Below are positions 2,764-32,745 of a stretch of DNA of 34,107 nucleotides, in pieces. The DNA comes from a virus (taxonomy: Duplodnaviria > Heunggongvirae > Uroviricota > Caudoviricetes): IMG/VR virus record IMGVR_UViG_2740892209_000010. The stretch is one strand, 5' to 3'. The translations under genes and the position numbers were made by a program. Numbering within the stretch: the stretch's first letter is position 1; every line of letters begins with the position of its first letter. The notes under the pieces are model-generated. The model searched no databases. It saw only the letters and a program-made list of their open reading frames with translations, and had not been told where the DNA came from.

Positions 2764-3260
2764 CAGTGATGACGCTCAATCTCGTTGAAAAACAGCCAGC
2801 AACTATGCGCCGGATAATTGGTAAGCATCTTGCCGTTCCTCGCTGGCAGGAGACATGTGATTATTATAATCAGATGATGGAGCGCGAACGGCTAACAGTT
2901 TGCTTTCATGCGCAGTTAAAACAACGTCACGCAACGATGCGTTTTGAAGAAATGAACGACGTCGAACGTGAACGGCTGGTTTGTGCAATTGATGAATTGC
3001 GTGGGGCATTCTCAAAACGCCGTCAGGTCGGTGCAAGTGAGTATGCATATATTAGCTTTTTAACTGTCAGTCAGCGCCGCACTTTATTTATGCACGCACG
3101 ACTGACAGAAAAAGAATTTAACCAGCCATACTGGCGAATTAATGAAGAATCATGTTACTGGCGTGAAGCTTTATTCCGTGCATTACGTGAATTATTCAGT
3201 CTGTTTGAGTATGCACCGACAATTCTGACATCGGTAAAACCAGAGCAATATCTGCATTAA
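2760..3260 (+). CDS. B: Replication protein B (helicase-loader-like), 166 aa
   Basis: 166 aa equals P2 B; position between cox and A in the early operon; start overlaps the upstream stop (ATGA at 2760). Confidence 0.8.
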   Translation: MTVMTLNLVEKQPATMRRIIGKHLAVPRWQETCDYYNQMMERERLTVCFHAQLKQRHATMRFEEMNDVERERLVCAIDELRGAFSKRRQVGASEYAYISFLTVSQRRTLFMHARLTEKEFNQPYWRINEESCYWREALFRALRELFSLFEYAPTILTSVKPEQYLH

Positions 3261-4074: not shown

Positions 4075-4346
4075 GCATTCGTATAGAAATTGGCGAACGT
4101 TATGTCGTTACCAGTGACAGCTTTCAGTTTATTCTCCATGAGAAAAAGAGAGCGGAAAGCGGTAAAAACGCCGGTCAGGAGTGGCTGGCGGTGGTTGGTT
4201 ATTACCCGAAATTAAGCCAGCTCGTTTCCGGCCTGATGCATCACGATATTCTGACCGGAAGCGCAAAGTCTTTTGCTGATTTAAACGCGCAGGTTGAGCA
4301 ACTCAGCAAGCGTTGTTCAGAGGCTTTTGGCTCATATGGCCATTAA
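4071..4346 (+). CDS. Hypothetical early protein (P2 orf83 position), 91 aa
   Basis: ORF overlaps the upstream stop and the start of A by a few nucleotides. Confidence 0.5.
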   Translation: MSIRIEIGERYVVTSDSFQFILHEKKRAESGKNAGQEWLAVVGYYPKLSQLVSGLMHHDILTGSAKSFADLNAQVEQLSKRCSEAFGSYGH

Positions 4347-6621
4347 AGCCTCCGGGCGTTTTGTCCCTCCGTCAGCATTTGCTGCAGGCACCGGTAAGAC
4401 GTTTACCGGTGCTTATGCATGGAGCGCGCCACGCGAGGCTGTCGGGCGCGAAAGACCCCTTACACGTGACGAGATGCGTCAGGTGCAAGGTGTTTTATCC
4501 ACGATTAACCGCCTGCCTTACTTTTTGCGTTCGCTGTTTACTTCACGCTATGACTACATCCGGCGCAATAAAAGCCCGGTGCACGGGTTTTATTTCCTCA
4601 CATCCACTTTTCAGCGCCGTTTATGGCCGCGCATTGAGCGTGTGAATCAGCGCCATGAAATGAACACCGACGCGTCGTTACTGTTTCTGGCAGAGCGTGA
4701 CCACTATGCGCGCCTGCCGGGAATGAATGACAAGGAGCTGAAAAAGTTTGCTGCCCGTATCTCATCGCAGCTTTTCATGATGTATGAGGAACTCAGCGAT
4801 GCCTGGGTGGATGCGCATGGCGAAAAAGAATCGCTGTTTACGGATGAGGCGCAGGCTCACCTCTATGGTCATGTTGCTGGCGCTGCACGTGCTTTCAATA
4901 TATCCCCTCTCTACTGGAAAAAATACCGTAAAGGGCAGATGACCACGAGGCAGGCATATTCTGCCATTGCCCGTCTGTTTAACGATGAGTGGTGGACTCA
5001 TCAGCTTAAAGGCCAGCGTATGCGCTGGCATGAGGCGTTACTGATTGCTGTCGGGGAGGTCAATAAAGACCGTTCTCCTTATGCCAGTAAACATGCCATT
5101 CGTGATGTGTGTGCACGCCGCCAGGCAAATCTGGAATTTCTTAAATCGTGTGATCTCGAAAACAGGGAAACCGGCGAGCGCATCGACCTTATCAGTAAGG
5201 TGATGGGCAGTATTTCTAATCCTGAAATTCGCCGGATGGAGCTGATGAACACCATTGCCGGTATTGAGCGTTACGCCGCAGCAGAGGGTGATGTGGGGAT
5301 GTTTATCACGCTGACCGCGCCGTCAAAGTATCACCCGACACGTCAGGTCAGAAAAGGCGAAAGTAAAACCGTCCAGCTAAATCACGGCTGGAACGATGAG
5401 GCATTTAATCCAAAGGATGCGCAGCGTTATCTCTGCCGTATCTGGAGCCTGATGCGCACGGCATTCAAGGATAATGATTTACAGGTCTACGGTTTGCGTG
5501 TCGTCGAGCCACACCACGACGGAACGCCGCACTGGCATATGATGCTTTTTTGTAATCCGCGCCAGCGTAACCAGATTATCGAAATCATGCGTCGCTATGC
5601 GCTCAAAGAGGATGGCGACGAAAGAGGAGCCGCGCGAAACCGTTTTCAGGCAAAACACCTTAATCGGGGCGGTGCTGCGGGGTATATCGCGAAATACATC
5701 TCAAAAAACATCGACGGCTATGCACTGGATGGTCAGCTCGATAACGATACCGGCAGACCTCTGAAAGATACTGCCGCGGCTGTTACTGCATGGGCGTCAA
5801 CGTGGCGCATCCCGCAATTTAAAACGGTTGGTCTGCCGACAATGGGGGCTTACCGTGAACTACGCAAATTGCCGCGCGGTGTCAGCATTGCTGATGAGTT
5901 TGACGAGCGCGTCGAGGCTGCACGCGCCGCCGCAGACAGTGGTGATTTTGCGTTGTATATCAGCGCGCAGGGTGGGGCAAATGTCCCGCGCGATTGTCAG
6001 ACTGTCAGGGTCGCCCGTAGCCCGTCGGATGACGTTAACGAGTACGAGGAAGAGGTCGAGAGAGTGGTCGGCATTTACGCGCCGCATCTCGGCGCGCGTC
6101 ATATTCATATCACCAGAACGACGGACTGGCGCATTGTGCCGAAAGCTCCGGTCGTTGAGCCTTTGACTTTAAAAAGCGGCATCGCCGCGCCTCGGAGTCC
6201 TGTCAATAACTGTGGAAAGCTCACCGGTGGTGATACTTCGTTACCGGCTCCCACACCTTCTGAGCACGCCGCAGCAGTGCTAAATCTGGTTGATGACGGT
6301 GTTATCGAATGGAATGACCCGGAGGTTGTGAGGACGCTCAGGGGGGCATTAAAACACGGCCTGAAAACACCAAATCGTCAGCAAAGAAACGGAAGCCCGT
6401 TAAAACCACATGAAATAGCACCGTCGGCCAGACTGACCCGGTCGGAACGATTGCAAATTACCCGTATCCGCGTTGACCTCGCTCAGAACGGTATCAGGCC
6501 GCAACGATGGGAGCTTGAGGCGCTGGCGCGTGGCGCGACAGTAAATTATGACGGGAAAAAATTCACGTATCCGGTCGCTGATGAGTGGTCGGGATTCTCA
6601 ACAGTAATGGAGTGGACATGA
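4336..6621 (+). CDS. A: Rolling-circle replication initiator endonuclease A (HUH superfamily), 761 aa
   Basis: In-frame ATG at 4336 gives 761 aa (P2 A length) beginning MAIKASGRF. HUH motif TPHWHMMLF and double-tyrosine motif AGYIAKYISK read directly from the translation. Confidence 0.9.
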   Translation: MAIKASGRFVPPSAFAAGTGKTFTGAYAWSAPREAVGRERPLTRDEMRQVQGVLSTINRLPYFLRSLFTSRYDYIRRNKSPVHGFYFLTSTFQRRLWPRIERVNQRHEMNTDASLLFLAERDHYARLPGMNDKELKKFAARISSQLFMMYEELSDAWVDAHGEKESLFTDEAQAHLYGHVAGAARAFNISPLYWKKYRKGQMTTRQAYSAIARLFNDEWWTHQLKGQRMRWHEALLIAVGEVNKDRSPYASKHAIRDVCARRQANLEFLKSCDLENRETGERIDLISKVMGSISNPEIRRMELMNTIAGIERYAAAEGDVGMFITLTAPSKYHPTRQVRKGESKTVQLNHGWNDEAFNPKDAQRYLCRIWSLMRTAFKDNDLQVYGLRVVEPHHDGTPHWHMMLFCNPRQRNQIIEIMRRYALKEDGDERGAARNRFQAKHLNRGGAAGYIAKYISKNIDGYALDGQLDNDTGRPLKDTAAAVTAWASTWRIPQFKTVGLPTMGAYRELRKLPRGVSIADEFDERVEAARAAADSGDFALYISAQGGANVPRDCQTVRVARSPSDDVNEYEEEVERVVGIYAPHLGARHIHITRTTDWRIVPKAPVVEPLTLKSGIAAPRSPVNNCGKLTGGDTSLPAPTPSEHAAAVLNLVDDGVIEWNDPEVVRTLRGALKHGLKTPNRQQRNGSPLKPHEIAPSARLTRSERLQITRIRVDLAQNGIRPQRWELEALARGATVNYDGKKFTYPVADEWSGFSTVMEWT

Positions 6622-7073
6622 TGGCAAAAATTCACGAGGTAAAGCTGCACGCAAAATATTTCGACCTTGTGCTGGAAGGAAAGAAACGCGCAGAGTTTCG
6701 GAAAAATGACCGTAATTATGAGCGCGGGGACACGTTGATTTTGCATGAATGGGGGCAGGGTGTGTATACGGGGCGAAAGGTTGAAGCCCGGATAACAGAT
6801 GTTACTGACCTGTCAGACTGGCTGGAAGATTATGTCTTGCTAAGTATTGAGCTGCTTAATACAGGCGCATATGAGATTGTGAACTGGAAAGAACTTAGTG
6901 AGCGTGGTCTGTTATTCAGAATTAATCATGAAATTATGCATAAGCTCGGCCTTGCTGTTATGTATGAACCAGAGACGGGAATGTCTGGCGGGGCAATGGT
7001 TGCCACGGATGGAGCATGGAACTATTCAGATGAACAGATGGAGCGTGCACAGCAAAACGGGTGGCTTGGATAA
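6618..7073 (+). CDS. ASCH/PUA-like (DUF3850-like) protein, P2 orf91 position
   Basis: ATGATG at 6618 overlaps the stop of A and has a GGAGTGG RBS. N-terminal MAKIHEVKLHAKYFDLVLEGKKRAEFRKNDR resembles the DUF3850/ASCH fold family (from memory). Confidence 0.6.
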   Translation: MMAKIHEVKLHAKYFDLVLEGKKRAEFRKNDRNYERGDTLILHEWGQGVYTGRKVEARITDVTDLSDWLEDYVLLSIELLNTGAYEIVNWKELSERGLLFRINHEIMHKLGLAVMYEPETGMSGGAMVATDGAWNYSDEQMERAQQNGWLG

Positions 7074-7279
7074 TGCACAGAATACCAGGCGAGATACCGC
7101 ACCATAAAACTAAAAATATCAAGCTGATGGCTATTGTTCAGCGTTTACAGCGGATTATGGTCAACGAAAATCTGACGCCCGATGAGCTAGTCGGGTGTGC
7201 CGAAATAGTCCGGGATAATTACGGGCGGTTTAACTATATCGGTCAGTCCAGAGTTGCGCCACCACCACGCAGACGATAG
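7073..7279 (+). CDS. Small hypothetical protein (68 aa), translationally coupled to the preceding gene
   Basis: TAATG stop-start overlap at 7071..7075; basic C-terminus; followed by an 11-bp perfect hairpin. No recognisable motif. An alternative start is at 7127. Confidence 0.3.
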   Translation: MHRIPGEIPHHKTKNIKLMAIVQRLQRIMVNENLTPDELVGCAEIVRDNYGRFNYIGQSRVAPPPRRR

Positions 7280-7289
7280 ATAACGCCGC

Positions 7290-7350
7290 CAGTCGTGAAA
7301 CTTGTTTTCAGGGCTGGCGGCGTTGAACAACGAGTGAAGCGAGGCGTTAG
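7290..7350 (+). repeat. Cassette leader repeat, copy A (~61 bp)
   Basis: Ungapped alignment by eye with 8262..8322 gives 46/61 identities (~75%). Shared blocks include tgaaacttg, ttggcgg, gttga and gttag. Confidence 0.6.
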
Positions 7351-7508
7351 TTGACATTCATATTTTTACTGCGTTGGTGCTGTTTTTTGACGGTTGAAAG
7401 GAGTTATCTCGGAGAGCTAAAGCTAACAACTTACAAATATTCAAAAGTAAGCTTCCTGTTGCTAACATAAGGTCGATTTTTTATGTGGATGATGCAAAAA
7501 GGATAGCT

Positions 7509-8240
7509 ATGGATACTATAATCGCTTTTCTATCACTCGCTTTTTTTGTTGCTTTTTTCATCGGGTTAATCAAGCCATCACTGGTGCGAATGCCAAGCCG
7601 CAAACGTGCAAGTGCGGTTTATCTCGGAGGAGGTTTTGTATTGAGCATAATTGGTTCAATACTCTATCCAACAGAAAAAAGCCAGCCAGTTGCTAAAACT
7701 GAAACATCAACCGTTGTAGAACACCAAGTCCAAAAAACATTCGAATATGGTGAAAAAACACTCAAGGAATATCGGAGCGAGCCAAAGAAAACTCGACACG
7801 ATATTGTGAATAGTTACATTGACTTTAAGAAAGTTCCAGTCACCGCATCAGATGCATTTTATGCCTGCATGAGTGAGTATACATTTACCAAAGATGATGA
7901 GTTGAAACTCGGTGATGTTCTTGGGTGGTGCTTTAATGATTATGAAAATGACCCGAGTTCACTAAATAATAAAATCAATCTTGATACATTTCAGAGTAAT
8001 TTTAGTGGTTGGGATGGTTCTTATCGTCCATTGGAAAAACTAATTAAAGATAATATGAACGATGATTCATCTTATAAACATGTATCAACGGTATATCATT
8101 TAGTTTTGAATAAAGACCCGCACGCCATTGTGAAAACGACGTTTCGCGGCACTAATGCTTATGGTGGCATGGTCAAACAGACTGTAGCAGCGCGAGTTGA
8201 CGTGCGAACGGGTGAGATCGATTCAATACTCGACAATTAA
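7509..8240 (+). CDS. Accessory cargo protein 1: predicted membrane protein with two N-terminal TM helices and a ~190-aa C-terminal domain of unknown function (243 aa)
   Basis: ATG at 7509 with AAGGA RBS at 7497..7501 (the ORF track starts at an upstream GTG, 7485). Hydrophobic stretches TIIAFLSLAFFVAFFIGLI and AVYLGGGFVLSIIGSILY. Strongly AT-rich relative to the phage backbone. Sits in the P2 tin/old position between replication genes and cos. Confidence 0.75.
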   Translation: MDTIIAFLSLAFFVAFFIGLIKPSLVRMPSRKRASAVYLGGGFVLSIIGSILYPTEKSQPVAKTETSTVVEHQVQKTFEYGEKTLKEYRSEPKKTRHDIVNSYIDFKKVPVTASDAFYACMSEYTFTKDDELKLGDVLGWCFNDYENDPSSLNNKINLDTFQSNFSGWDGSYRPLEKLIKDNMNDDSSYKHVSTVYHLVLNKDPHAIVKTTFRGTNAYGGMVKQTVAARVDVRTGEIDSILDN

Positions 8241-8261
8241 ATAATATAGTGACAACTCCGT

Positions 8262-8322
8262 CAGTGATGAAACTTGCTTTTAGTCTTGGCGGGGTTGAGC
8301 AATGAGTCTTGCAAGGTGTTAG
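8262..8322 (+). repeat. Cassette leader repeat, copy B (~61 bp)
   Basis: Homologous to 7290..7350 (~75% identity). Its 3' end supplies the AAGGTG RBS (8313..8318) for the gene starting at 8324. Confidence 0.6.
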
Positions 8323-8323
8323 C

Positions 8324-8980
8324 ATGCGTAGAATGGAAGCTGCTTGGACGTGGGGTATTCATATGAATTTAAAAATTTTCGGCATAATTGTCCTTTCTGC
8401 TTTGATGTTCGTTTTAGGTTTTTTTCTCGGTGGTTTTAATTGGGAATGGGCTGATAAGAATTATGCAGGTGAGGTGGCGTTGTGGAGTATGTTAGGAGGG
8501 TGGTTATCCGCAATTGCAACTCTGTTTGCCGTGTTGGTTTCATTATATATGGCGTATCAAGCTACTCAGAATGAGATTGAAAAAATCAGGGTTACTCATG
8601 GAGTAAGTATGAGTGTCACTCATGACAATGAGTTAAGTTGTAATCTCATTATTCAGAACTTGAGAAATATGAAAGTGAATATTACTGGTGTTTTTTTGTC
8701 TCTAGGTAAATCATCAGGTAAGTACTCTTTGGATAAAGTAATTGACAATCGTAATATAACGCTTTCATATAAAGGTGAAACAGAAAAGGTACAATTTGTA
8801 ATCCATTCTGGGTATATTTGGTGGTCAATGTATAAATTATTCGATATGGATAAGAACATAGGTTTTGAAAAGGGTAAGATCTTGATAACAACCAACCTCA
8901 ATACATATAAATTTGATTTGCCAAAAGAATATTTAAGAGCTTTTGAGAAAGCTTATTCGGAGTATCAGACAAAAAAATAA
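8324..8980 (+). CDS. Accessory cargo protein 2: predicted membrane protein with two N-terminal TM helices and a ~130-aa C-terminal domain of unknown function (218 aa)
   Basis: ATG at 8324 six nt after AAGGTG. Hydrophobic stretches LKIFGIIVLSALMFVLGFFLGGF and WLSAIATLFAVLVSLYMAY. AT-rich. Lies immediately upstream of cos. Confidence 0.75.
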   Translation: MRRMEAAWTWGIHMNLKIFGIIVLSALMFVLGFFLGGFNWEWADKNYAGEVALWSMLGGWLSAIATLFAVLVSLYMAYQATQNEIEKIRVTHGVSMSVTHDNELSCNLIIQNLRNMKVNITGVFLSLGKSSGKYSLDKVIDNRNITLSYKGETEKVQFVIHSGYIWWSMYKLFDMDKNIGFEKGKILITTNLNTYKFDLPKEYLRAFEKAYSEYQTKK

Positions 8981-8987
8981 TGAGCTG

Positions 8988-9009
8988 CATGCAAAAGGTG
9001 CATGTTTTT
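8988..9009 (+). terminator. Putative intrinsic terminator after cargo gene 2
   Basis: Short stem catgc (8988..8992) / gcatg (9000..9004) with loop aaaaggt, followed by ttttt (9005..9009). Overlaps a longer AT-rich palindrome (8988..8996 with 9006..9014). The stem is weak. Confidence 0.3.
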
Positions 9010-9109
9010 GCATGTGCTAAGTTCACTGGTTTTGTGTATATCGCTTCAGATCTAGCGTGGTTCCGGGGAGGGCATGCAACTGCATTAAAACCGCTCCATG
9101 AAGCGGGCG

Positions 9110-9128
9110 GGCGAGGCGGGGAAAGCAC
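9110..9128. other. cos site (19-nt cohesive-end sequence)
   Basis: ggcgaggcggggaaagcac read at 9110..9128. It matches my recollection of the P2 cohesive end and sits where P2 has cos, between the accessory region and portal gene Q. Confidence 0.7.
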
Positions 9129-9297
9129 TGCGCGCTGGCGGTGGTGCTGATTTTATTTTTTCAGCGTCTGAGCGCGTCGTGATGGCGTTTAGATTGTTCG
9201 CCGGGGCGTTGGTGTGTCTGCGGGATGTTTTGTACGGTGGTGAGCGTGTGAGGGCGTGATGACAGGGTGTAAAAAAGCCGCCCGCAGGCGGCGATGT

Positions 9298-10332
9298 TCA
9301 GCCGTTGTCAGTGTCCAGTGAGTAGTTTTTAAAGCGGATGACCTCCTGACCGAGCCAGCCGTTTATCTCGCGGATCCTGTCCTGTAACGGGATAAGCTCA
9401 TTGCGGACAAAGACCTTTGCCACTTTCTCAATATCACCCAGCGACCCGACGTTCTCCGGCTTGCCGCCCATCAACTGAAAGGGGATGCGGTGCGCGTCCA
9501 GCAGGTCAGCGGCGCTGGCTTTTTTGATATTAAAAAAATCGTCCTTCGTCGCCACTTCACTGAGGGGGATAATTTTAATGCCGTCGGCTTTCCCCTGCGG
9601 GGCATAGAGAAACAGATTTTTAAAGTTATTGCGGCCTTTCGACTTAACCATGTTTTCGCGAAGCATTTCGATATCGTTGCGATCCTGCACGGCATCGGTG
9701 ACGTACATGATGTATCCGGCATGTGCGCCGTTTTCGTAATACTTGCGGCGGAACAGCGTGGCCGACTCATTCAGCCAGGCAGAGTTAAGGGCGCTGAGAT
9801 ATTCCGGCAGGCCGTACAGCTCCTGATTAATATCGGGCTCCAGCAGGTGAAACACGGAGCCGGGCGCGAAGGCTGTCGGCTCGTTGAAGGACGGCACCCA
9901 CCAGTAAACATCCTCTTCCACGCCACGACGGGTATATTTTGCCGGTGAGGTTTCCAGTCTGATGACCTTACCGGTGGTGCTGTAGCGCTTTTCCAGAAAC
10001 GCATTACCGAACACCAGAAAATCCAGCACAAAGCGGCTGAAATCCTGCTGGGAAAGCCACGGGTGCGGGATAAACGTTGAAGCCAGAATATTACGTTTGA
10101 CGTAAATCGGTGAGCTGTGATGCACGGCAGCACGCAGACTTTTTGCCAGACCGGTAAAGCTGACCGGCGGCTCATACCATCTGCCGTTACTGATGCATTC
10201 GACGTAATCCAGAATGTCACGGCGGTCGAGTACCGGCACCGGCTCGCCAAAGGTGAATGCCTCCATTTTCGGGGCGATGGCGGTCATGGTTTTTGCCGCA
10301 GGTTGCGGTGTTTTCCCTTTTTTCTTGCTCAT
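9298..10332 (-). CDS. Q: Portal protein Q, 344 aa
   Basis: 344 aa equals P2 Q; minus strand, first gene after cos; start overlaps the stop region of P. Confidence 0.9.
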   Translation of the reverse strand: MSKKKGKTPQPAAKTMTAIAPKMEAFTFGEPVPVLDRRDILDYVECISNGRWYEPPVSFTGLAKSLRAAVHHSSPIYVKRNILASTFIPHPWLSQQDFSRFVLDFLVFGNAFLEKRYSTTGKVIRLETSPAKYTRRGVEEDVYWWVPSFNEPTAFAPGSVFHLLEPDINQELYGLPEYLSALNSAWLNESATLFRRKYYENGAHAGYIMYVTDAVQDRNDIEMLRENMVKSKGRNNFKNLFLYAPQGKADGIKIIPLSEVATKDDFFNIKKASAADLLDAHRIPFQLMGGKPENVGSLGDIEKVAKVFVRNELIPLQDRIREINGWLGQEVIRFKNYSLDTDNG

Positions 10333-32573: not shown

Positions 32574-32601
32574 TAAAAAATAAGCCCGTGTAAGGGAGAT
32601 T
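32574..32601. repeat. attR core (right copy of 28-bp att direct repeat)
   Basis: Identical to 650..677. Confidence 0.85.
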
Positions 32602-32745
32602 ACACAGGCTAAGGAGGTGGTTCCTGGTACAGCTAGCATTTTATGGGTTATGTTTTTCAGCGAAACGGATGATAACCTTAATAAATGCAGCTGTATGTGA
32701 TCGGTTTCTAAGAATTTTCCATCCGGGAAAAATAATCGAAATTAA

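Follow-up and report, generated by a model that had tools for sequence, protein, structure and literature searches.

The 34,107-nt stretch of DNA analysed here (the window; IMG/VR record IMGVR_UViG_2740892209_000010) is a P2-like (Peduoviridae) prophage whose variable region spans gene A to cos, an interval that constitutes the tin/old hotspot of P2-like phages (Rousset et al., PMC9122126). Within this region lie two copies, A and B, of a structured unit of 72-74 nt. We find that the unit is a 3' trailer, positioned directly past the stop codon of a plus-strand gene (an orf72-like small open reading frame (ORF), orf97 or tumB), and that its occurrence is limited to the A-to-cos interval of P2-like phages. 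It seems on balance probable that the unit works in the plus-strand transcript, as a 3' or intercistronic structure at the end of the early (P2-type) or SOS (186-type) operon.

A covarying hairpin with a conserved tail behind stop codons

A first-pass annotation of this DNA had aligned 7290-7350 with 8262-8322 without gaps at 46 of 61 positions. Recomputation returned the same count and extended the homology to 7279-7350 against 8251-8322, again ungapped, with 54 of 72 positions identical (75%), the longest run of identical bases common to the two copies being 9. Chance identity had been proposed as the comparison to make, and the repeat withstands it: across 200 dinucleotide-shuffled windows the best match to copy A averaged 35/72 and reached at most 39/72, as against the 54/72 observed. 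The next-best true match to copy A in the window is 35-36/72, and the palindrome's overlap with itself on the reverse strand at 7256 gives 43/72. A covariance model built from 91 homologues scores copy A at 89.8 bits and copy B at 69.7 bits, and over the whole 34 kb it finds nothing else above 10 bits except the palindrome's reverse-strand shadow. We therefore reject chance similarity of the copies, on the basis of the shuffles and the covariance model scores together. The TTGACA hexamer at 7351-7356 and the AT-rich leader described behind copy A are also present, the leader measuring 158 nt (7351-7508) at 35% G+C.

The unit consists of an imperfect hairpin of ~20 bp followed by a conserved tail of 26-28 nt. 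The hairpin has the foot AAC...GTT, the apical stem CTGAAA/TTTCAG and the loop CTYGY, while the tail reads GTTGAACAACGAGY, 3-5 variable nt, then GCGAGGCGTTAG. As RNA, the consensus is CUGAAAC-UUGY-UUUCAG at the apex and, in the single-stranded tail, GUUGAACAACGAGY, the 3-5 variable nt and GCGAGGCGUUAG. The stem is maintained by compensatory substitutions. In an alignment of 91 distinct units, 87.8% of stem cells are paired and both sides change at 11 of the 20 pairs; none of 500 shuffles reaches any of these measures, and slid registers pair at 35-45%. Compensated versions include CCTGCAGG, CCAGCAG/CTGCTGG, GCTAG/CTAGC and CCACCGG/CCGGTGG, and even a mismatch is conserved, at columns 8/46 (unpaired in 60/91, G.G in 56). 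The stem is also biased towards one strand, with 201 G.U-type cells vs 29 of A.C type and a predicted plus-strand RNA hairpin stabler than its minus-strand counterpart in 89 of the 91 variants (mean -26.9 vs -18.5 kcal/mol). Copy B, whose predicted RNA fold is -25.3 kcal/mol on the plus strand and -11.6 kcal/mol on the minus strand, retains its stem through G.U pairs on the plus strand only.

Further pairings were considered. An H-type pseudoknot between loop (CUYGY) and tail (GCGAG) is sterically possible, with 95.8% of cells able to pair, but 318 of 500 shuffles do equally well and both sides change in 1 cell only, so that there is possible pairing and no covariation beyond conservation. A local tail hairpin (CTCGC/GCGAG) can form in only 13/91 variants, with 64% of cells paired overall, and an alternative duplex between 5' arm and tail, possible in 90% of cells, involves columns that are all conserved and is hence uninformative. 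A gathering scan of the whole window against Rfam 15 recovered only CyaR at 32578-32663 and no family for the unit; a permissive scan of 6500-9400 gave only a chance Intron_gpII match (E = 1.7). Reading through from orf72, the ORF ahead of copy A, is open for 24 codons in the window, yet 1-nt indels among copies and stem-wise substitutions lead us to reject a coding role. A reverse-strand ORF also overlies the hairpin (7187-7357 on the minus strand of the window; 1646-1945 in the locus of phage P2_4A7b, L088) and appears as a 'hypothetical protein' in some phage records; given the covariation of the stem, miscalling is its most likely origin. In E. coli records, too, a 'hypothetical protein' is listed at the unit, although some of these entries may be the orf72 ORF.

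The position of the unit relative to genes is equally constrained. Of 137 non-redundant instances, 129 have the stop of a plus-strand ORF of at least 45 codons within the 30 nt that precede the hairpin foot, and in 53 of them TAG stands 3 nt ahead of the foot. The 200 nt upstream fall into 13 clusters, mainly orf72-like ORFs (93), orf97 (33) and tumB/DinI (24), and the 200 nt downstream into 28. In phage 186 the unit comes after orf97 and is separated by 20 nt from t95b, annotated as the p95 terminator; window and 186 match at the nucleotide level from 7459 through 8323, and copy B is inherited together with the orf97 homologue ahead of it in 186, in Erwinia phage EtG and in many other loci. 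The first-pass annotation had taken the unit for a leader ahead of each cargo gene, a view contradicted by these trailing stops, by the inheritance of copy B along with the gene before it, and by a ceiling of two copies per locus while ~3/4 of close P2-like hotspots carry cargo without any unit. The reverse also occurs: orf97 has no unit behind it in the P2-type phages 9W and P2_2H4, and P2_4A7b retains a degenerate hairpin only.

The same annotation had run copy B straight into the start codon of the next gene, cargo 2, and credited it with supplying the ribosome-binding site. An ATG does adjoin the unit at 8324, preceded by AAGGTG at a distance of 5 nt, but the start that is conserved lies at 8363. 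The frame is open from 8324 in the window; in two related loci, L150 and L176, the cargo 2 gene follows the unit across a non-homologous 40-nt spacer containing stop codons, and its conserved ORF starts at the equivalent of ATG 8363. Because that spacer is unrelated and the start falls at the 8363 equivalent, copy B is not a conserved ribosome-binding site, and gene callers have probably mis-started cargo 2 at 8324 or at TTG 8309. An ATG-initiated ORF right after the unit is found in the cargo-2 lineage only, and the downstream gene is convergent in 25 of the 137 instances, 12 of which take the TTA of GTTAG as a TAA stop.

The ends of the orf72-like ORFs form an observation of their own. The protein encoded by orf72 in the window ends PPPRRR-stop (CCA CCA CCA CGC AGA CGA TAG), with the hairpin foot 2 nt beyond, and PPPRRR-stop or PPPRRP-stop closes ~58 of 82 related instances across separate upstream nucleotide clusters. 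Such ends combine rare Arg codons (AGA, CGA) with a TAG 2-3 nt before a GC-rich hairpin (window 7259-7279). In E. coli, a C-terminal proline, rare Arg codons before the stop and a hairpin less than 15 nt from the stop each promote stalling and SsrA tagging. The orf72-like C-terminus and the hairpin could together form a built-in termination pause.

Distribution of the unit and the boundaries it occupies

BLAST with copy A, a search that the first-pass annotation had suggested running against P2-like prophages, picked up 78 phage records that contain the unit, covering Escherichia, Salmonella, Klebsiella, Yersinia and Erwinia, among them 186, PSP3 and Wphi. The repeat is more than a local duplication: it belongs to a family with ~140 non-identical instances in P2-like phages. 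In E. coli the unit is present in 515 of 5426 complete genomes (~9.5%), at 538 places in 516 records, with a median of 1 and a maximum of 2 per genome. A few plasmids have it as well, and the two examined carry P2-like prophages; we accordingly reject an occurrence outside P2-like phages, the examined plasmid matches being P2-like prophages in IncC and other plasmids. Many complete E. coli chromosomes and IncC plasmids place the unit at an identical coordinate near their start (2940-3017 or 2618-2691), and NZ_CP104682.1 starts exactly at the prophage 'replication endonuclease' (gene A); such assemblies seem to have been rotated onto the phage gene A as though it were the replicon's own initiator.

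For comparison of loci we gathered 216, of which 80 were anchored on the portal gene and the rest were found via a degenerate pattern and annotated records. A profile search identified 178 units (~140 non-identical) in 158 of these, with two copies in 28 loci and more than two in none. These counts are lower bounds, because a degenerate hairpin in L088 escaped both the profile and the covariance model. It lies at 2741-2800, after orf97, and reads GCCACCGA...CTGAAGTTTG...TCGGTGGC, then ATTGAAAG; it looks like a decayed unit without the tail. With the covariance model, no further diverged copies were found after other cargo genes. Units lie past gene A on that gene's own strand in 145/145 cases, and inside the interval between A and the portal gene Q in 103/103. 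The unit is also optional: only ~20 of the 80 portal-anchored, nearly identical P2-like loci possess it. The sequence just past the A stop falls into 35 unrelated clusters in 70 loci, 13 of which have the module composed of a DUF3850 gene, orf72 and the unit.

The proposal that the repeat marks modular boundaries was borne out by reassortment of its contexts, by a sharp 3' edge and by homology breakpoints at the edges of copy B. Among the ~140 non-identical instances, 46 pairings of the 13 upstream with the 28 downstream contexts are represented, with 15 four-gamete quartets. Column information is 2 bits at ...TTAG, then 0.67 at +1 and ~0.2 at +2; conservation declines rather less abruptly at the 5' edge, which is the hairpin foot. 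In L087-L089 (phages 9W, P2_4A7b and P2_2H4) homology to the window breaks at the orf97 stop, 8227-8238, and in L068 it continues through 8322 and is followed by a different gene. In FSL SP-004 and a Klebsiella phage, variable cargo (Fic; a helix-turn-helix protein plus polymerase) stands upstream of the unit and a conserved gene downstream, so that variable DNA may flank the unit on either side. Turnover of both flanks around a conserved element makes the unit a marker of mosaic joints and a usable patch of homology. The arrangement in the window is as follows.

4294-6621, plus strand: replication gene A, rolling-circle endonuclease (ORF list; P2-type A C-terminus 96% identical; phage 186/P2 annotation)
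6621-7073, plus strand: DUF3850/ASCH and DUF7415 protein, 'Orf91 protein' in phage 9W (Pfam PF12961, PF24187, PF04266; phrog_1812)
7073-7279, plus strand: orf72, a small ORF of 68 aa (phrog_11386, E = 6e-39)
7279-7350, plus strand: unit copy A, hairpin 7282-7324 and tail 7325-7350 (GAACAACGAGTGAAGCGAGGCGTTAG) (covariance model; predicted fold -37.6 kcal/mol, z = -5.0)
7351-7508, plus strand: AT-rich leader of cargo 1, with TTGACA at its 5' end (sequence)
7509-8240, plus strand: cargo 1, phage 186 orf97 homologue of 243 aa with a hydrophobic N-terminal stretch (phrog_3403, E = 7e-144)
8251-8322, plus strand: unit copy B, hairpin 8254-8296 and tail 8297-8322 (covariance model; contiguous with orf97 in 186-like loci)
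8363-8980, plus strand: cargo 2, putative membrane protein with a hydrophobic N-terminal segment (phrog_16957, function unknown; alignment of loci L128, L150 and L176)
8987-9015, plus strand: terminator-like hairpin with a T-run, start of the conserved cos-proximal block (terminator scan)
9110-9128, plus strand: 19-nt sequence GGCGAGGCGGGGAAAGCAC (exact string in the window and most portal-anchored loci)
9298-10332, minus strand: portal protein gene Q (ORF list; 99-100% identical portal matches in 80 IMG/VR loci)

Gene A, which carries an ori-like motif GTCAATAAC at 6202, is the last backbone gene ahead of the variable region, and gene Q the first beyond the hotspot. The DUF3850/ASCH gene belongs to an optional module found in 13 of 70 portal-anchored loci, and the ATG of orf72 at 7073 overlaps the preceding stop as TAATG. 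Within the cargo 1 leader, 7351-7458 occurs in P2-type loci only, and 7459 onward is common with phage 186; a promoter scan of 7351-7508 found no promoter-like site at 9/12. Both cargo genes are AT-rich. Cargo 1 has ~76% nucleotide identity to 186 orf97 and no match in Pfam or PADLOC. The GenBank note on 186 orf97 states that 'expression from plasmid blocks 186 infection', on account of which cargo 1 is a candidate superinfection-exclusion or defence gene. A distant paralogue of cargo 2 follows orf97 in P2_4A7b (L088 2948-3646). The terminator-like hairpin forms the right-hand limit of the variable region in 186-type loci, 186-like homology resuming at 8986, and we take the 19-nt sequence at 9110-9128 to be the P2 cohesive end (cos). 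At the far end of the window the CyaR/RyeE small RNA gene is full-length (minus strand, 100.7 bits); the window therefore ends in host DNA, the prophage lying close to cyaR. Exact Chi (GCTGGTGG) is absent from both strands of the 34 kb, where ~1 would be expected by chance.

The two copies in the window would seem to differ in ancestry. From 7000 to 7352 the sequence is P2-type, ~97% identical to P2/Wphi records, and this homology ends at 7352, while 7459-9178 (orf97, copy B, cargo 2 and the cos-proximal DNA) forms one block with 72-80% identity in L128, L150 and L176. It thus appears that in the window a P2-type left part (A, DUF3850, orf72, copy A) was joined to a 186-type right part (orf97, copy B, cargo 2, cos), and such a chimera would give the simplest history for the two copies. 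In the other two-copy class (SEN1, SW9, PSP3 and relatives), tumB is followed by a unit, then by an orf72-like ORF and, ~400 bp from the first unit, by a second. Two-copy loci always bracket one small gene, either an orf72-like ORF (~400 bp spacing) or orf97 (~970 bp).

Role of the unit and alternative explanations

A function in the plus-strand transcript draws on observations of several kinds, namely the position after a stop, the covarying stem, the strand bias, the fixed orientation and the place inside the annotated p95 transcript of 186. In such a role the hairpin would stabilise, process or insulate the upstream lytic or SOS-operon mRNA, the unit would limit read-through into foreign, AT-rich and often convergent cargo, and it may in addition slow termination of the abutting ORF. 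Passively, a conserved unit of this kind would become a mosaic joint and offer phages a short stretch of homology at which to exchange DNA. The proposed stabilisation or processing of upstream mRNA, the limiting of read-through, or both, are likened to repetitive extragenic palindromic (REP) elements, T7 RNase III hairpins and PeSL stem-loops.

REP elements and the bacterial interspersed mosaic elements that contain them resemble the unit as imperfect GC-rich palindromes in 3' untranslated or intercistronic regions, often a few nt from the stop. REPs reportedly shield upstream mRNA from 3' exonucleases, according to Newbury et al. in 1987 and Liang, Rudd and Deutscher in 2015, and in the same studies a REP less than ~15 nt from the stop is said to stall terminating ribosomes. 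Unlike the unit, present in 1-2 copies in P2-like prophages only and equipped with an extra conserved tail, REPs number hundreds of chromosomal copies in both orientations, and we know of no likeness of the unit to the REP consensus. A second likeness is to lambda sib and to the intergenic RNase III processing sites of early T7 mRNA, homologous hairpins of ~20 bp whose stems contain mismatches and which separate or follow phage genes. They act on the transcript, setting 3' ends and the stability of upstream mRNA. The unit likewise offers an imperfect duplex of about two helical turns, with 19-20 predicted pairs and the conserved mismatch columns 8/46, but the T7 and sib elements, located in essential early regions, lack any counterpart of the conserved tail, whereas the unit lies at a cargo hotspot.

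Several points weigh against a function in the transcript. That the unit is transcribed, and that an RNA 3' end or cleavage falls at it, is what we infer. Annotated neighbour genes are on the minus strand in FSL SP-004 and the Klebsiella phage. A role in RNA stability does not obviously explain the strongly conserved tail or a 3' edge sharp to 1-2 nt. Because the G.U excess comes largely from three inherited stem positions, independent events are fewer than the counts, and the bias fits a plus-strand hairpin in single-stranded DNA equally well. The terminator scan found no terminator-like site at either copy, and the stem is followed by GAACAACGAG, with no U-tract, for which reasons the unit is not a classical intrinsic terminator. 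Finally, its absence from ~3/4 of closely related P2-like hotspots makes it dispensable.

Other signals that the unit or its surroundings might contain were tried and rejected. No sigma-70 promoter scoring at least 9/12 overlaps 7279-7350 or 8251-8322, and the TTGACA at 7351 has no acceptable -10 element at 16-18 nt. For a trans-acting antisense role of the tail, the best duplex predicted elsewhere in the prophage, at -29.3 kcal/mol, falls among those of shuffled controls (-27 to -37 kcal/mol). The 3' arm contains GCTGGCGG, which differs from Chi at a single base, but these positions covary and the window has no exact Chi. For a LexA box, the spacing of the apical CTG-N11-CAG is wrong, as judged by eye.

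The foremost alternative, to which we give appreciably less weight than to a transcript-level role, is a portable homology linker resembling PeSL, in which DNA-level recombination between units, in co-resident P2-like phages or between the two copies of one genome, shuffles, deletes or circularises single-gene modules. The reassortment of contexts into 46 combinations with 15 four-gamete quartets, the breakpoints at unit edges and the single small gene between paired copies would all follow, and both hotspot papers leave the mechanism of cargo exchange open (PMC9122126, PMC13586616). The T4-type precedent is close: PeSL (promoter-early stem-loop; Arbiol et al. 2010, PMC2839356), a mobile regulatory cassette, is a short intergenic repeat in a hyperplastic region, starting from the upstream stop codon, with a stem-loop containing G-T pairs and a Shine-Dalgarno-like sequence near its 3' end, and it flanks non-essential, variable and recombining ORFs at coinciding module exchanges. 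The unit, too, is a stem-loop at an upstream stop that flanks variable ORFs at exchange points. It differs in having no sigma-70 promoter, where PeSL has a consensus one inside the repeat, in occurring at most twice per genome rather than dozens of times, in its long conserved single-stranded tail, and in its restriction to a single interval and orientation; PeSL copies recombine with one another, giving deletions and mini-circles.

Selection for homology alone would neither keep a compensated stem nor favour one strand. RecA-dependent exchange is generally taken to require a minimum of 20-30 bp of homology, and copies A and B share no more than 9 consecutive identical bases. Most hotspots, moreover, have no unit at all; dispensable as it is, the unit cannot be the general mechanism of swapping.

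Much less probable is a site for site-specific cassette recombination, comparable to integron attC (the 59-base element) or to the subterminal hairpin of HUH or IS200/IS605 elements, with joining after GTTAG. We hold it doubtful that an undescribed, strand-specific form of cassette exchange in the P2-like defence hotspot recognises the unit, acting through the folded plus-strand hairpin with the join after GTTAG. Were it so, strand-specific exchange would explain the 1-2-nt edge and the single-gene modules (orf72-like, orf97) between direct copies. The sharpness of that edge across ~28 unrelated downstream contexts and the strand-biased hairpin with its conserved G.G mismatch point in this direction, and the phage has both an HUH endonuclease (A) and a tyrosine integrase. 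An attC site is likewise an imperfect palindrome 3' of a cassette gene, strand-specific and tolerant of extrahelical or mismatched bases, and GTTGAAC or GTTGAGC at the 3' foot of the unit fits the core GTTRRRY. The 5' inverse core RYYYAAC is unmatched, however, as AGATAAC, AGCAAAC and TGACAAC do not fit (these comparisons were made by eye), and in an attC-style comparison of the feet only AAC/GTT pair. The homology boundary, after GTTAG, lies 26-28 nt past the hairpin foot, whereas attC crossover occurs within the core; units never form arrays of more than two, and cassette limits are inconsistent. In particular, the left end of the orf97 module is not the same in 186 as in the window, where homology runs from 7459 and not from the point at which copy A ends, which precludes a consistent definition of the cassette. 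No recombinase is evident in the hotspot either: the ORF list has no integron integrase between A and Q, and a Pfam recombinase domain is absent in the four hotspot proteins. The unit is also no pseudo-origin for the A endonuclease: its score against the ori region cut by A is 14-16, the null median being 14. In phage mosaics, joints at functional boundaries are often sharp without the involvement of any site-specific mechanism.

Less likely again is a plus-strand hairpin serving as a DNA signal in replication or packaging, for example in lagging-strand priming on the strand that A-initiated rolling-circle replication displaces or as an accessory terminase site. The fixed orientation downstream of ori and upstream of cos would suit it, as would the G.T-tolerant strand bias on single-stranded DNA, and the 8-mer GCGAGGCG is common to the tail (7339-7346) and the putative cos overhang (9111-9118). 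The chance probability of this 8-mer is ~0.02 by a rough estimate, but matches are not collinear with cos, the distance to cos ranges from ~0.2 kb to several kb, and the unit is missing from most closely related, presumably viable P2-like phages. GGCGGGG is found in the 3' arm of most units and also in the putative cos.

Least likely of all is the original proposal of a 5' leader or translation-initiation module for whichever cargo lies downstream, since the Shine-Dalgarno-like GAGG of the tail (AAGG in copy B) and the ATG 2 nt past the unit in the window, L197 and L128 are set against an ATG-initiated ORF in only 1 of ~28 downstream contexts, the displaced cargo 2 start in L150 and L176, a cargo 1 start 158 nt past copy A and the frequency of convergent downstream genes.

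Place of the unit in P2-like phage biology

The region was reportedly sequenced in P2-like coliphages by Nilsson et al. in 2004 (in Mol Biol Evol 21:1) and by Odegrip et al. in 2006 (in J Bacteriol 188:1643). Term searches for hairpin, stem-loop and terminator in the 2022 description of the hotspot (PMC9122126), and for stem, terminator and conserved sequence in a survey from 2026 that covers thousands of elements (PMC13586616), came back empty. The unit is absent from Rfam and goes unmentioned in both hotspot texts, and the papers of 2004 and 2006 may already describe its stem-loop. As an intergenic structured repeat at phage module boundaries, it belongs to a known kind of element.

P2-like prophages harbour one of the best-studied hotspots of anti-phage defence genes, and the analysis adds to it a structured element of ~74 nt, with its covariance model, sited at the points of exchange in a sizeable minority of P2-like phages. 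It also corrects annotation, at the conserved start of cargo 2 and at the spurious reverse-strand ORF over the hairpin. The unit provides a handle on how lytic or SOS transcription is separated from foreign cargo, and on whether short conserved linkers steer modular exchange.

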